NCBI GenBank assembly: GCA_963665845.2
Contig: OY762492.1
Coordinates: 512,001 to 576,000, forward strand
From: Candidatus Poribacteria bacterium
GTDB taxonomy: Bacteria > Poribacteria > WGA-4E > GCA-2687025
Direction: 5' to 3'
DNA length: 64,000 bases
Positions 11,705 to 40,396 of this stretch are shown here, one piece after another; positions within the stretch are counted from its first letter, which is position 1; each line of letters begins with the position of its first letter. The translations under genes were made by a program, and so were the position numbers. The notes below the pieces were generated by a model, which worked only from the letters and a program-made list of their open reading frames with translations, ran no database searches and was not told where the DNA came from.

Positions 11705-11800
11705 GGGGGCGGATAGGGTCCGGCGGCTCTACCGGTCTTCAAAACCGGATACGGGCGTTTAAACGTCTGTGGTGGGTTCGACTCCCACCCGCTCCCGCCA
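11705..11800 (+). tRNA. selC: tRNA-Sec(TCA)
   Basis: 8-bp acceptor GGGGGCGG/CCGCTCCC, CCGGT-CTTCAAA-ACCGG anticodon arm, long variable arm, GCCA end, 96 nt. Confidence 0.93.
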
Positions 11801-13788: not shown

Positions 13789-14103
13789 TTCAAACCGCGT
13801 TTCACGGGATGGTACGCCCATGCGGTGAACTTCATTTTGACCCTAGAGCGTCCGCGCCGCTGCGCCCGTCCTTTAAACCCCCTAGCCCCCTTTCAAGGGG
13901 AATCTGATCTCACGCCTAAAGTTGGGACATCCCGGCATGGAAACGCAGACGGTTTCTGCGACGCCTCTAGATTCCCGCTTGCGCGGGAGTATCTGTGTTC
14001 AAAGTCAATCATTTTGCGCTTTCCGTAGCGCCGAAAGTCGCCGCGGCGGATATTTTTCGGCAGTACCGAAGGAGCCGCCGCAGCGAGATTTCGGAAAGGG
14101 TTT

Positions 14104-15306
14104 TCATCTGCCTTGCGTCCTGTCGCTTGACTGCGGATCCGAAGACGCCGATGCCGGCGCTTCTCCAGGCGCCGGCAGCGCCTCCCCGACAGCCTCGTCA
14201 GAAGGCGCTGCGGCAGATGTTTTGATCGGCGCCGCGACCGACGCATCGGAAGACCCCAACTCTTCCGATGGCGCCTCAGCCTCAGTTTCATCCTGCTCAT
14301 CAGAAGACGCCGACTCTTCCGACGAAGCCAACGAATGCAGCTCATCCAAAGGAACCCAAGGCGTCTCCCGCTTCAGAATCGCGTTCGCAAGAACCGCCAG
14401 CTTCCGCATCACCGCCACAAGAGCCGCCTTCCCAGGCTTGCCGTTCTCCTTCAGACGCTCGTAAAACACCTTCATGTCCGGGTTGAAACGAATCGCCGAC
14501 ATCGCCGACATATACAGAAGCGCGCGAACATCGCTCCGACCGCCCCAAATATGACGCCGACCTGTCGACTTACCGCTCTCGCGCGCCCAAGGAGCCAAAC
14601 CAAGCAGGGAACAGATCTGACTCCCGCTGCGCCTGCCCAACTCCGGCACATGAAGAACCAGATACGCGGAAATGAGAACCCCGAAGCCCGGAATGCTCTC
14701 CAACAGGCTGAACTTCTCGCGAAGCTCTGCCTCTTTCTTGACCAATGCCAGAGCTTCCCGCTCCGCCGCGTCACGCTTCTCTTTCAGGGACTGGATGATC
14801 TCTTCGGTCGCATCCTTGGTCGCCTCGCCGTCCAGCAGATGCTTCCGATTGGTCCACTGAGTGATCGTTTTCACCAGCTGCATGCGTATCGTCATCCAGC
14901 GGCGAGCCTTTTTCACGACCGGATCGATCGGTTTCGTTGGTTTCAGATCGCGGCTCAGCCCATACAGCGCGAGCATCTTGGCGTCCAGCGCGTCGGTCTT
15001 GGCGCGGACGCTGTAGGAGCGGATGAAGTTATGGGCAAAGTTTGGATGGCAGCGGCGGTAAGGGATCTCTGCTTCGGCGAGCAGCGACGCCAGTTTCCGC
15101 TCGTATCCGCCGGTCGGTTCAAAGACGACCATGTTGATGTCGGGGCGGGTCGTCAGGAGGCGTTTGATGAACCGCTTGATGGGGCTCGCGGCGTTTTTGA
15201 TGGTGGAGGTTTTCCCGCTGTTGATGGAGATTTCAAGCGTGTCTTTGGACGCGTCGATTCCGGCGACGATTTTGTTGCTGTTTTCGTCGTGGCGTGGTAT
15301 GTTCAT
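14104..15306 (-). CDS. IS110 DEDD recombinase/transposase with acidic C-terminal tail
   Basis: GIDASK, FEPTG, KTDALDA (DEDD); SIPGFG; ARESG catalytic Ser; AVMRKL. Confidence 0.95.
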   Translation of the reverse strand: MNIPRHDENSNKIVAGIDASKDTLEISINSGKTSTIKNAASPIKRFIKRLLTTRPDINMVVFEPTGGYERKLASLLAEAEIPYRRCHPNFAHNFIRSYSVRAKTDALDAKMLALYGLSRDLKPTKPIDPVVKKARRWMTIRMQLVKTITQWTNRKHLLDGEATKDATEEIIQSLKEKRDAAEREALALVKKEAELREKFSLLESIPGFGVLISAYLVLHVPELGRRSGSQICSLLGLAPWARESGKSTGRRHIWGGRSDVRALLYMSAMSAIRFNPDMKVFYERLKENGKPGKAALVAVMRKLAVLANAILKRETPWVPLDELHSLASSEESASSDEQDETEAEAPSEELGSSDASVAAPIKTSAAAPSDEAVGEALPAPGEAPASASSDPQSSDRTQGR

Positions 15307-15324
15307 TTTCGTTCTCCTTTCGGG

Positions 15325-15525
15325 AGAAAAGGACAAGAAGGACCGGCCTCCTTACTTGTATTCTGTAACAAGAACACGGTATCTGTGCGGAGCCTCCGGT
15401 CTTTCTTGTCTTCTTTGCGCGGCTCTCGATACTCCCGCACGGCGCCGCTGCGAAGCAACGCGCCCAAGACGGTCTGGAGTCTGACCGCGCTACCCCTTAA
15501 GTATGCGCTTACTCGAGGGGCAAGA
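15325..15525 (-). ncRNA. Putative bridge RNA of IS110 copy 1 (ends approximate)
   Basis: Non-coding left end with two stem/internal-loop/stem domains whose loops match target and donor halves. Confidence 0.7.
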
Positions 15526-15722
15526 TCATCATACAAATGACGGTTGGATCGGCGGGCCGCCGCGCAAAAAATGAACGTTCTCGCCTGTAGAGACTTCCTT
15601 GAGCGCAAACGAATCTCCGCCGTGTCATGACCATAACCTAAGCGGAGTTTGCGGTTGCCCTTTACTACAGATTCATATAACGTGCGGCTTGAGTATTCAG
15701 GCGCGAAAGGGAGAGCGGTTGT

Positions 15723-20130: not shown

Positions 20131-21180
20131 TTAAAACTGCTCATACTCGTCTGGGCGGAGCCGCTCGGAGGTACTTGTTTGTTTCATCTGTACCGTCACC
20201 GTTGCGATGGTACCGCTCTCTTCGCCTGTCATGGACATGACCGCGTTGTTGATGATCTTGGTTTTGACGGGCCACCGATCCTCCTTGGAGATATGGACGG
20301 TACCCTCCATGTCGTACGATTCCATGTTGAGCGCGAGATTCACGCCCTCAATCTGTAGCGAGGCGGTTCCCTCCGCCAGCTTGCCTTCGCCGGTCAGCTC
20401 TAAAACGTGGGACGGAATTTTTTTAACGACCTTGTCCCCTTGGCGCGACCAGTTGAGCTGAATATCGGTCGTTATGGAGGTACCTTCCAGCTCCTCCTCC
20501 ACCTGCATCTCCTCTTCCCAAAGGTACTCGTTCAGCTTTGGGTAAACGAGGCCGGGAGCGATGATGTTGTGCTTCAAGCTCGCCTCGTTAAGGAAATCGA
20601 GGCTGGGTCCGCCGCTGTCGCCGCCGATCGATTCCAGCGCTGTCAAGAATTCCTTCGCCGCCGTCTTTTTGATTTCGCCGCGCGGCGTCATCGTGATTTT
20701 AAACGGCTCGTTCAAAAGCGACTTCGCGGATTCGGTTATCTCTCGGCTCGTTTCCTCCTTCATCTGCTCAATCTCCCCCTGCGGAAGATCCGGCGGAAAA
20801 GCTCCGCTAATGCCCGTCAAGGCGACATCAAACTTCTTATACTTCGTTTCGATGATCCCGTTCCCGTTTTCGACAACCTCAACAACGCGCTGCTCAATCA
20901 CCGAGTCGATCTCAAATTTCATTTTGATCGCTCCGGCGGGAGTGTTGATCGTCATTTCGATTTTCTGCTTGTCGCGGTAGGCGAACAGATCCCCCTCCTG
21001 CAGCCGAAAGCGGAGCGGGCCGTCTGTCTGCTCTGTCAGCTCCGTCGGCGACAGCGGCTCAACAGCTTCCTCCGTCGGCGTCAACAGCCCGTCCGTCTGC
21101 CCCGCCGGCGGGAGCAGACCCAACATCGCCAGCGCCAAACCTGTCAACATATACCGCGCCATTCGCCGTTCGTTCATCAT
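20131..21180 (-). CDS. Secreted hypothetical protein (DUF6263-like), paralog A
   Basis: Signal peptide; LRFRLQEG...FKITMTPRGEI; tandem paralog of the next gene. Confidence 0.65.
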   Translation of the reverse strand: MMNERRMARYMLTGLALAMLGLLPPAGQTDGLLTPTEEAVEPLSPTELTEQTDGPLRFRLQEGDLFAYRDKQKIEMTINTPAGAIKMKFEIDSVIEQRVVEVVENGNGIIETKYKKFDVALTGISGAFPPDLPQGEIEQMKEETSREITESAKSLLNEPFKITMTPRGEIKKTAAKEFLTALESIGGDSGGPSLDFLNEASLKHNIIAPGLVYPKLNEYLWEEEMQVEEELEGTSITTDIQLNWSRQGDKVVKKIPSHVLELTGEGKLAEGTASLQIEGVNLALNMESYDMEGTVHISKEDRWPVKTKIINNAVMSMTGEESGTIATVTVQMKQTSTSERLRPDEYEQF

Positions 21181-21218
21181 TGCGCTCCTTCGCCGTTGCC
21201 GTTTTCCTCTGCCTTTGC

Positions 21219-22262
21219 TTAAAACTGCTCATACTCGTCTGGGCGGAGCCGCTCGGAGGTAATTGTCTGTTTCATCTGCGCCGTCACCGTATCGATGGCG
21301 CCGCACTGTTCGCCTGTCATGGATAAGACCTGGTTGCTGACGATCTTGGTTTTGACGGGCCACCGATCCTCCTTGGAAATATGGACGGTACCCTCCATGT
21401 CGTACGATTCCAGGCTGACCGCGACATCCACGCCGTCAATCTGTAGCGAGGCGGTTCCCTCCGCCATCTTGCCTTCGGCGGTGAATTCCAAAATGTGCGA
21501 CGGGATTTTTTTGACAACCTTGTCCCCCTGACGAGACCAATCGATCTTCACATCGGTCGTCACAGAGCTGCCTTCCATCTTTTCAACGACCTTCATCTCC
21601 GACTTCCAGACATACTCCTCCAGCTTTGGAAACTCGAGGCCAGGGACAATGCGGTTTATCTTCAAGGTCTCTTCGGCGAACCAATCCTTGAAGGCGATCG
21701 GCAAGCCCGCAGGGAGTTCTATCGATTCTACCGCCGCTAAGAACTCTTTTGCGTCCACTTTTTTGATTTCGCCGCGCGGCGTCATCGTAACTTTGTACGG
21801 CTCGTTCAGGATCGGCGTTAAAAGCTCGGTCATCATGCGGCTCGCGGTCTCCATCGCCTGGTCAATCTCCTCCTGCGAAATGCCTGGCGGAACAAGCCCG
21901 CCAATGCCCAACAAAACGATGTCAAACGTCTTAAACTTCGTTTCAATGATCCCGTATCCGTTTTCTGCCACCTCAACAACGCGCTGCTCAACCACCGAGT
22001 TGACCTCATACTTCATTTTCATCGGTCCGCCGGGAGTGTCAGCGTTGATTTCGATTTTCTGCTTGCTGCGGTAGGCGAACAGATCGCCCTCCTGCAGCCG
22101 AAAGCGGAGCGGTCCATCGACTTTCTCCGCCGGCGTCAGCGGCTCAACCGCTTCCTCTGTTGGCGTCAGCAGCCCGTCCGTCTGCCCCGCCGGCGGCAGA
22201 AGACCCAACATCGCCAGAGCCAAACCTGTCAACACATACCGCGCCATTCGCCGAGACCGCAT
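21219..22262 (-). CDS. Secreted hypothetical protein (DUF6263-like), paralog B
   Basis: N- and C-termini near-identical to paralog A. Confidence 0.65.
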   Translation of the reverse strand: MRSRRMARYVLTGLALAMLGLLPPAGQTDGLLTPTEEAVEPLTPAEKVDGPLRFRLQEGDLFAYRSKQKIEINADTPGGPMKMKYEVNSVVEQRVVEVAENGYGIIETKFKTFDIVLLGIGGLVPPGISQEEIDQAMETASRMMTELLTPILNEPYKVTMTPRGEIKKVDAKEFLAAVESIELPAGLPIAFKDWFAEETLKINRIVPGLEFPKLEEYVWKSEMKVVEKMEGSSVTTDVKIDWSRQGDKVVKKIPSHILEFTAEGKMAEGTASLQIDGVDVAVSLESYDMEGTVHISKEDRWPVKTKIVSNQVLSMTGEQCGAIDTVTAQMKQTITSERLRPDEYEQF

Positions 22263-22340
22263 CGCGCTCTCCTTTTCAAAACCTTCAACACCGTTTCTAC
22301 ATTTAAGCATATATGAAAGAGACCGGAAATGCAAACGAAG

Positions 22341-22424
22341 CTGACCTTATGCTAAAAGTTGGGACATTTGAGCCGACGATCGCTCTATTCATGGGAAAAA
22401 GGCGCCGCCAACCAATCCGTCATT
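22341..22424. repeat. MITE-A left half interrupted by IS110
   Basis: ctgaccttatgctaaaagttgggaca...ttcatgggaaaaa...ccgtcatt. Confidence 0.8.
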
Positions 22425-22434
22425 TGTATGATGA

Positions 22435-22635
22435 CATTGCCCCTAGAGTAAGCGCATACTTAAGGGGTAGCGCGGTGAGACTCCAGACCGTCTTGGGCGC
22501 GTTGCTTCGCAGCGGCGCCGTGCGGGAGTATCGAGAGCCGCGCAAAGAAGACAAGAAGAACCGGCGGCTCCGGACAGATGTTGTGCATTCGTGCAGAATA
22601 CAAGTAGGGAGGCCGGTCCTTCTCGTCCTTTTTCT
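22435..22635 (+). ncRNA. Putative bridge RNA of IS110 copy 2 (ends approximate)
   Basis: Target loop CAGACCGTC (22484-92) / GCGGGAGT (22522-29); donor loop ACAGAT (22574-79) / ATACAAGTA (22598-606). Confidence 0.7.
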
Positions 22636-22653
22636 CCAGAAAGGAGAACGAGC

Positions 22654-23847
22654 ATGAGTCTAACTCAGACCAAGACAAACAGCAACAAAATCGTCGCCGG
22701 AATCGACGTGTCCAAAGACACGCTTGAAATCTCCATCAACGGCGGGAAAACCTCCACCATTAAAAACGCCGCGAGCCCCATCAAGCGGTTCATCAAACGC
22801 CTCCTGACGACCCACCCCAACATCAACATGGTCGTCTTTGAACCGACCGGCGGATACGAGCGGAAACTGGCGTCGCTGCTCGCCGAAGCAGAGATCCCTT
22901 ACCGCCGCTGCCATCCAAACTACCCCCATCACTTCGCCCGCTCCCAGCGCGTCCGCGCCAAGACCGACCCGCTGGACGCCAAGATGCTCGCGCTGTATGG
23001 GCTGAAGAACGATCTGGAACCGACGAAGCCAATCGATCCGGTCGTGAAAAAGGCTCGCCGCTGGATGACGATACGCATGCAGCTGGTGAAAACGATCACT
23101 CAGTGGACCAATCGGAAGCATCTGCTGGACAGCGAGGCGACCAAGGATGCGACCGAAGAGATCGTCCAGTCCCTGAAAGAGAAGCGTGACGCGGCGGAGC
23201 AGGAATGTCTGGCATTGGTCAAGAAAAATGCCGATCTCCACGCAAAGTTCCGTCTGTTGGAGAGCATTCCGGGCTTCGGGGTTCTCATTTCCGCGTATCT
23301 GGTTCTTTATGTGCCGGAGTTGGGCGCGCGCAGCGGCCGTCAGATCTGTTCCCTGCTTGGTTTGGCTCCTTGGGCGCGCGAGAGCGGCAAGTCGACAGGT
23401 CGGCGCCGCATTTGGGGCGGTCGGAGCGATGTTCGCGCGCTTCTGTATATGTCGGCGATGTCGGCGATACAGTATAACCCGGACATGAAGGCGTTTTACG
23501 AGCGTCTGACGGATCGCGGCAAGCCTGGGAAGGTCGCGCTTACGGCGGTGATGCGGAAGTTGGCGGTTCTTGCGAACGCGATTCTGAAGCGTGGAACGCC
23601 TTGGGTTCCTTCGGATGAGTTGCCTTCTTTGGCGTTGTCGGAAGAGTCGGCGTCTTCCGATGAGCAGGATGAAACAGCGGCTGCGGCGCCATCGGAAGAG
23701 TCGGGGTCTTCCGATGCGTCGGTCGCGGCGCCGACCGGAACATCTGCGTCTTTGGATGAGGCTGACGGGGAGGCGCTGCCGGCGCCTGGAGAAGCGCCGG
23801 CAGCGGCGTCTTCGGATCCGCCGTCAAGCGACAGGACGCAAGGCTGA
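22654..23847 (+). CDS. IS110 DEDD recombinase/transposase with acidic C-terminal tail
   Basis: GIDVSK, FEPTG, KTDPLDA, ARESG, AVMRKL; GAAAGGAG RBS. Confidence 0.95.
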   Translation: MSLTQTKTNSNKIVAGIDVSKDTLEISINGGKTSTIKNAASPIKRFIKRLLTTHPNINMVVFEPTGGYERKLASLLAEAEIPYRRCHPNYPHHFARSQRVRAKTDPLDAKMLALYGLKNDLEPTKPIDPVVKKARRWMTIRMQLVKTITQWTNRKHLLDSEATKDATEEIVQSLKEKRDAAEQECLALVKKNADLHAKFRLLESIPGFGVLISAYLVLYVPELGARSGRQICSLLGLAPWARESGKSTGRRRIWGGRSDVRALLYMSAMSAIQYNPDMKAFYERLTDRGKPGKVALTAVMRKLAVLANAILKRGTPWVPSDELPSLALSEESASSDEQDETAAAAPSEESGSSDASVAAPTGTSASLDEADGEALPAPGEAPAAASSDPPSSDRTQG

Positions 23848-24151
23848 TGAAAACATCTTTCCGAGAGACAGCTGCGGCGGCTCCTTCGGCTCTTGCCGAA
23901 AAATATCCGCCGCGGCGACTTTCTGGACTACGGAGAACGAGATATGGTTGACTTTGAACACAGATACTCCCGCGCAAGCGGGAATCCAGAGTAGACACCC
24001 TCCGCATCCTAAAACGGCTTTAAAATCAAAATCATCGTCTATAGAGACCGCCTCTAGCAGCGCAGGCGGGCAAAAGGCGCTATACTATGCTTTCATGATG
24101 CTCATGGATATTCATGGGCTTGTCGCGGATTCCGCGGGGAAGGCTTGGAGC

Positions 24152-40074: not shown

Positions 40075-40269
40075 GCTAAACCCCCTAGCCCCCTTTTCAA
40101 GGGGGAGTCTTGTTGCGCCCCTTTTCAAGGGGGAACGATCTGACCTCATGCTTAAAGTTGGGACATTTGAACCAACGATCGCTCTATTCATGGGAAAAAG
40201 GCTTCGCCAACCAGACCGTCATTCCCGCGGAAGCGGGGACGACCATCGGCGCCAACGCTTTAAGGTCAA
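40075..40269. repeat. Hairpin module plus internally deleted MITE-A
   Basis: ctgacctcatgcttaaagttgggaca...cagaccgtcattcccgcggaagcggg...taaggtca. Confidence 0.75.
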
Positions 40270-40396
40270 ATGAAGTTCATCGCATAAGCGTACTGCCTCG
40301 TCGTGTAAAAGTTGAAACGGGGCGCGTTTGCGGCTATCGTATACGTTCCCGCGCCTTCATCAATGAAACAAACGGGCGGGTTAGACCGGAGGGTAT

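Follow-up and report, generated by a model that had tools for sequence, protein, structure and literature searches.

Together with ISCro4/IS622 (10.1101/2025.05.14.653916), IS621 is the described system closest to the element reported here. IS621 recombination cuts the top strand of each partner behind position 9 and its bottom strand between positions 5 and 6, with T9 being strictly read (PMC11208158), and TT cores work if both partners are changed. The IS621 template gives each guide strand as an anchor G followed by 11 nt (PMC11208160, supplement 7). Published accounts disagree about the final step, as bottom-strand cutting is described to complete IS110 recombination (PMC11208158), whereas other work describes a mostly top-strand process (10.1101/2025.10.25.684509; 10.64898/2026.08.31.748434). 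Partial excision using the left donor only is known as well (10.64898/2026.08.14.744561; 10.64898/2026.08.31.748434). Partners that differ inside positions 6–9 mark strand origin for free, and the element described in the following has such partners.

The window, a stretch of 64,000 nucleotides from a Candidatus Poribacteria contig, carries an IS110 element with an intact recombinase at 22425–23968 (Table 1). The recombinase aligns with IS621 (8WT6, E 2e-27) and ISCro4 (9T56, E 2.5e-29), and the catalytic residues of the IS110 group listed in Table 1 were placed by alignment with both. Close recombinase proteins exist at 57–73 % identity; with this clade, but not with relatives at 40 % identity, the recombinase shares a C-terminal tail of ~80 aa (23610–23847) that is acidic and of low complexity. 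Translation suggests that one protein of the clade, P0012, reads through into a peptide fitting the same right junction. Seven close, near-full copies in the genome (G000, 3.98 Mb) show 88–93 % identity to the copy in the window, and there are also two distant copies that have decayed, a 5' partial copy and a bridge RNA remnant; four of the nine full-length copies retain the full ORF, both window copies among them. The left end measures 229 nt and the right end 121 nt. Scans of metagenomes and genomes for homolog loci suited to broad covariation returned only relatives at 26–34 % identity, and among 176 genomes of the phylum the right junction was found only in G000, in the assembly of its sister species G001 and at one site of G064 (C104:85–107), where it lies at the start of a contig; G064 belongs to a different family of this phylum. 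Decayed right junctions at G000:C1:3739056 and G001:C9:106232 were seen with no element body found nearby. Upstream of the element, tandem paralogous genes occupy 20131–22334 on the minus strand, and a selenocysteine tRNA is located at 11705–11796.

Table 1. Features of the element and its surroundings (window positions, except for the last line).
Feature	Position	Strand	Basis
Second intact element copy, ~90 % identical, 400-aa recombinase	13988–15535	-	
Left arm of host REP cassette; 22416–22424 = left target half (positions 1–9, ending TT)	22341–22424	+	repeat families D2/D7/D20; junction alignment
Element start: right donor half 22425–22429 and predicted -10 box 22427–22432	22425–22432	+	position identical in 10/10 copies
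Predicted bridge RNA 5' stem-loop	22438–22469	+	fold; 96.7 % of cells paired, 10 copies
Predicted target-binding loop: LTG 22487–22494, inner hairpin 22496–22519, RTG 22522–22528, handshake 22529–22530	22470–22543	+	fold, copy conservation, guide variants in other samples
Predicted donor-binding loop: LDG 22574–22581, RDG 22598–22604, handshake 22605–22606	22560–22619	+	
Predicted hairpin over recombinase ribosome-binding site	22632–22648	+	fold; kept with changed bases in distant copies
IS110 recombinase, 397 aa, D18/E63/D105/D108/S244	22654–23847	+	PF01548 and PF02371
Element right end; predicted -35 box 23948–23953; left donor half with core CT 23960–23968	23848–23968	+	
Right half of split REP; right target half 23969–23973	23969–23990	+	
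Empty target site, matches left guide at positions 1–6 and 8	40215–40228	+	
G-TACT empty REPs	G000 C1:630785, 2683231, 758334		

Judged by its predicted fold, the left end probably codes for a bridge RNA of the IS621 type. An earlier note on this DNA, made without database searches, had read the IS621 bridge RNA layout from the letters, and its outer stem (22470–22476/22537–22543) and inner hairpin are indeed seen directly. Folding of 22425–22655 gave -98.1 kcal/mol (z -4.93), which was equalled by 0 of 200 shuffles. Across the 10 copies 97.7 % of cells pair, including three pairs with double changes, as compared to 36–54 % when slid, although conserved pairing is modest evidence, the copies being related. 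Placed in IS621 order, the four guides score 27.5 of 30, where the best of 3000 shuffles scored 26 and none of 1298 other window stretches reached 27.5; with the window's own flank as target they score 26.5, a value reached by no shuffle of 3000 and by one stretch of 1298. Prediction and conservation describe a structured RNA with two internal loops in the long left end, as in the IS110 group. Members of the IS1111 group carry their RNA in the long right end, whereas all four guides are found here inside the left end. The loops of the second domain match the circle junction as the earlier note had proposed, with the left donor guide (LDG) of copy 1 reading ACAGATAC, and the IS621 donor that it had given for comparison agrees with the authors' code. 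The LDG region of the window copy (22574–22582) can pair, with wobbles, with positions 6–9 of both donor and target, which may ease bottom-strand exchange. An Rfam search of the window returned no family in the bridge RNA region and three tRNA matches elsewhere.

The computed circle junction reads TTGACT-17-TATGAT, a predicted -35/-10 promoter by sequence, and where the right end varies, in runs X1, X3 and X4, it keeps TTGAC at the same spacing. A linear promoter scan gave one 9/12 match, which is chance level. By analogy with IS621, circle formation would rebuild the -35/17/-10 promoter, and the RNA would start near 22437. The circle junction was not among the joints in contigs of the four runs X1–X4, contigs being a form of data that drops rare forms. 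Contigs of the RNA run X10, a run that may hold DNA, cover 22418–22552 only and none lies over the donor loop. In one of them (record 6, at 22492–22552) a REP half runs straight into the inner stem of the target loop, which may reflect a deletion or an assembly chimera.

The host REP palindrome, named as the target in the earlier note, is where the element is found: all left junctions, 10/10 in G000 and 8/8 in G001, lie inside CGTC-type REPs in one orientation. The G001 assembly is without an element body, and its contig ends supply the eight left and nine right junctions, which have the same form as those of G000. In G000 the element is preceded on its left by target ..CGTCATT (10/10), and on its right ..ACAGATACT leads into the REP right half (9/9); target positions 8–9 are therefore TT, donor positions 8–9 are CT, and the crossover falls after position 9. 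The TT/CT asymmetry that the note had called unusual holds at 10/10 left and 9/9 right junctions of G000 and at 8/8 and 9/9 of G001. Only the second core base, T, is common to target and donor, contrary to the equal-core rule at 18/18 left and 18/18 right junctions. Exact copies of the CGTC-type REP number 705 in G000 and 163 in G001. CGTCATT precedes 10/10 insertions, compared to 612 of 1708 TT-preceded REP halves (p ~3e-5), and position 2 is C at 8/10 insertions versus 238 of these 612 (p 0.011); in G001, TGTCATT is found at 3/8 insertions versus 13/141 empty sites (p 0.04). The empty site that the note had cited near 40213 is present. Orthologous sites of the two genomes yielded no clean pre-insertion allele, as the REP cassettes have turned over between them. 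The REP is often embedded in a ~170-bp cassette whose ends are inverted (CTGACC...GGTCAG), seen in the window at 22341–22424, from 23969 onward and at 40140–40300 and also genome-wide. The cassette differs at orthologous sites of G000 and G001 and looks like a mobile, MITE-like unit.

The left target guide was described in the earlier note as offset or mismatched near the core. The mismatch is real, the main lineage having U opposite target position 7, but the offset was not confirmed: counted from the conserved CC(G/A)-N anchor found ahead of a guide in IS621, the guide pairs target positions 1–8 in the usual register. Among older copies and relatives, a matching A at guide position 7 is carried by the 746k copy, by the 2788k remnant and by contigs of runs X5, X6 and X7. 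The remnant (G000:C1:2788100–2788350) is a lone bridge RNA without recombinase, and its left guide is exact at target positions 2–8. From the anchor to the inner stem the left target strand measures 10 nt in every variant seen, as opposed to 11 nt in the other three guide strands, and position 9 is therefore unpaired or absent. The flank matches guide position 1 in only 5/10 G000 copies, the window's own flank giving no match there, and the 746k guide mismatches its own flank at positions 2–3. Two other explanations were rejected, namely pairing of the position-7 U with the linker AAGAC, since the 1533k copy has the U without AAGAC, and a register in which the guide CT is the core and the target has a two-base insert, which disagrees with the handshake match and the variants.

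A left guide that is bulged or shifted would be a further way to read this strand. A 9-nt guide starting one base earlier (GACCGTCTT) would then place its TT on the TT core with target base 7 looped out, and the bottom-strand cut would move one base further left, leaving scars one base short. Counting back from the inner stem with IS621 spacing does put TT on the core positions, and the base before position 1 is G in 6/10 flanks and G or A in 8/10. Most variants, however, keep CCG-A right before position 1 and A opposite target A7, so that no bulge is needed, and we regard this arrangement as unlikely.

Changes of guide and partner together were observed on both sides of the reaction. Record 14 of run X5 carries guide CCTGTCAT and flank CCTGTCATT on one contig with 8/8 matches, the placement on one contig being judged from loose-end lengths; on the donor side, the 746k copy changes donor positions 11–12 together with the right donor guide (RDG). 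This covariation comprises one contig for the target, one copy for the donor and the 10 related copies. It bears on the idea that targeting works mainly via the protein or the REP hairpin structure, with the RNA match being secondary. That idea draws on the mismatches of the left guide at positions 7 and 9, on the loose flank matches at positions 1–2 and on ISPpu10, for which a target stem-loop is described to add specificity (10.64898/2026.03.19.712850). It is at odds with the joint change of guide and flank in X5, with that of donor and donor guide, and with the strict orientation, which is kept though the right half of the palindrome reads alike both ways. We consider it very improbable, and hold with high confidence that this is a real bridge RNA IS110, its RNA being predicted, aimed at the host REP.

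Our main reading, to which we assign a probability of roughly 0.85, is that of an IS110 element whose predicted IS621-type bridge RNA would guide the recombinase to the CGTC-type REP, with junctions crossing over just after the common T. The element, guides, junctions, REP orientation and TT/CT asymmetry are read directly from the DNA. By analogy with IS621, the top strands would be cut after position 9 and swapped. With the cut placed there, the mismatch at position 8 is unsurprising. It should also cost little, because the G of the right guide would pair with C8 as a Watson–Crick pair or with T8 as a wobble, and it is symmetric, since each right guide ends in G. Positions 6–9 are non-identical between target and donor anyway. 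H87 of the recombinase aligns with N84 of IS621, and H is kept in 10/11 clade proteins aligned; a link between H87 and the relaxed position 8 is speculation. The handshake of the target loop matches donor positions 6–7 in 10/10 copies. In the main lineage both loops have UA handshakes, which gives equal pairing before and after exchange, whereas the handshakes of other lineages favour insertion.

The junctions also report on the strands involved. Double-stranded insertion predicts bottom-strand junctions in half of the copies, and 0/18 were seen, the target bases running through position 9 in 18/18 left junctions. Insertion therefore likely fixes the top-strand product. This pattern is not peculiar to the present element, as positions 6–7 also differ in IS621.

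A different pattern was encountered in empty REPs. Among 942 REP halves classed, nine lie two edits from the consensus, and three of these nine have the same form, G-TACT, out of 582 possible. G-TACT corresponds to target 1–4 plus donor 6–9, or target 1–5 plus donor 7–9, followed by the right target half, and is one base short. Single-step intermediates, either substitution-only (CGTCACT) or deletion-only (CGTATT), were absent among the REP halves. Top-strand exchange alone cannot give this form, while bottom-strand exchange with a one-base slip can. These REPs are likely rare outcomes of an excision or rearrangement that exchanged the bottom strands as well and slipped by one base, which is the least secure step of our main reading. 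A fourth candidate scar, in a related repeat type, lies at C1:1160295 and is duplicated on C2. The bulged guide would account for the missing base if the scar is divided as target 1–4 plus donor 6–9; the division into target 1–5 plus donor 7–9 serves equally, T being common there.

Whether recombination made these scars is, in our estimate, an evenly balanced question. The competing view is that the G-TACT REPs go back to one variant, created by mutation or by template switching from a right junction, which conversion then carried from cassette to cassette; we give this view somewhat less than an even chance. REP cassettes are mosaic and turn over fast, the sample is small (n=3, where one event could spread by gene conversion), and G001 has the element yet none of the G-TACT sites, which were sought there in 2.56 of 3.6 Mb and by exact pattern genome-wide. 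A single origin is harder to reconcile with the flanks, both of which differ among the three sites, and with the missing intermediates, and the replaced bases are exactly donor 6–9, which in the IS621 structure lie between the two cuts, top and bottom. Moreover, both scars with mappable flanks lie at synteny breaks, like other element-linked sites. Relative to G001 (2.56 of 3.6 Mb), breaks were found at 5/5 mapped element-linked sites versus 108/278 REP clusters (p 0.01), a comparison covering sites with both flanks mapped, in which 257 clusters and nine linked sites are unmapped and 17 contig-end clusters were set aside. As a control, four of five E. coli chromosomes, with 0, 3, 7 and 10 IS621 right junctions, were searched for scars. 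The 12 REP variants comprised 11 single C-to-T changes and one full-length hybrid (strain HS), none being one base short; the HS hybrid is weak, since it is a single change from a common variant.

Other incomplete forms were seen at REPs. At three G001 loci (L060, L071 and L072), 12 bp of the element left end, one base shorter at one site, remain between the REP halves. In G000 a partial copy (C1:469929–470373) ends at an internal CT and is joined directly to the REP right half, a joint also present in run X3. The 12-bp footprints and this copy fit partial excision of the left-donor-only type, or deletion between 4-bp repeats. The copy at G000:C1:1533503 has a chimeric RNA, its 5' half being of the main type and its 3' half of the distant one, showing that copies recombine; the flanks of the 746k and 1264k copies adjoin each other in G001, suggesting that copies have swapped flanks.

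The genome could be a natural record of both strands, in which insertions fix the top strand (18/18) and the neutral-handshake lineage sometimes excises by double-strand exchange, leaving donor 6–9 behind; we offer this tentatively, with yet less confidence than the single-origin explanation of the scars. The differences between target and donor at positions 6 and 8 make strand origin readable, and in the both-strands reading the scar would lack one base because the left target strand lacks one relative to IS621. Were this true, IS110 excision would leave scars, and the bottom-strand cut would be placed by loop length. With the candidate scars there is a precisely defined junction to search for, and if the TT/CT pair works, the rule that bridge editors be designed with equal cores would be relaxed.

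Bridge RNA and REP targeting are in themselves known biology; what makes the element a variant are its unequal core, its short left strand and its neutral handshake. New here, as a candidate finding, are the three empty REPs reading target-left, donor 6–9 and target-right, one base short. Papers describing a naturally unequal core or hybrid empty sites did not turn up in our literature search, though unequal-core elements may be present in the large supplements of PMC11208160 and in those of bioRxiv papers; the searchable text of six PMC11208160 supplements did not contain the target motif.

Compared with known systems, the element shares with IS621 the DEDD-plus-serine recombinase (PMC11208160, PMC11208158, PMC13626964), the long left end with 5' stem-loop, target loop, donor loop and CC(G)-N-guide layout (PMC11208160), the predicted junction promoter, the REP target and the handshake pair matching donor 6–7, and its donor differs from that of IS621 only in the order of two bases (positions 5–7, ATA vs TAT). 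In contrast to IS621, it combines target TT with donor CT, where the IS621 design code rejects unequal cores (PMC11208160, supplement 7), and its left target strand measures 10 nt instead of 11. Its right target guide is naturally 7 nt long and its right donor guide has no flipped-out UU. The handshake of the main lineage is neutral, whereas in IS621 a single pair before exchange gives way to three afterwards (PMC13626964). H replaces N84, the IS621 residue reading the G opposite C8, and the acidic tail of about 80 aa is a further difference. ISPpu10 of Pseudomonas putida (10.64898/2026.03.19.712850) is likewise an IS110 element in a REP, with a junction-promoter bridge RNA, natural guide mismatches and large rearrangements, but it has a CT core, a stem-loop 5' of the target, and a different host and repeat. 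The top-strand-dominated insertion described for CazIS110-1 (10.1101/2025.10.25.684509) fits the 18/18 junctions found here, whereas the accessible text on CazIS110-1, half matches and partial circles describes no chromosomal site with donor 6–9 between target halves. The target itself resembles the CGTC-tagged REPs of PMC3733652 in its CGTC/TGTC tag, its stem starting with AT and its CCA-like tail; the accessible text of that paper has no mention of IS110, and the REP described here differs in often being part of the larger, ~170-bp cassette with inverted ends.
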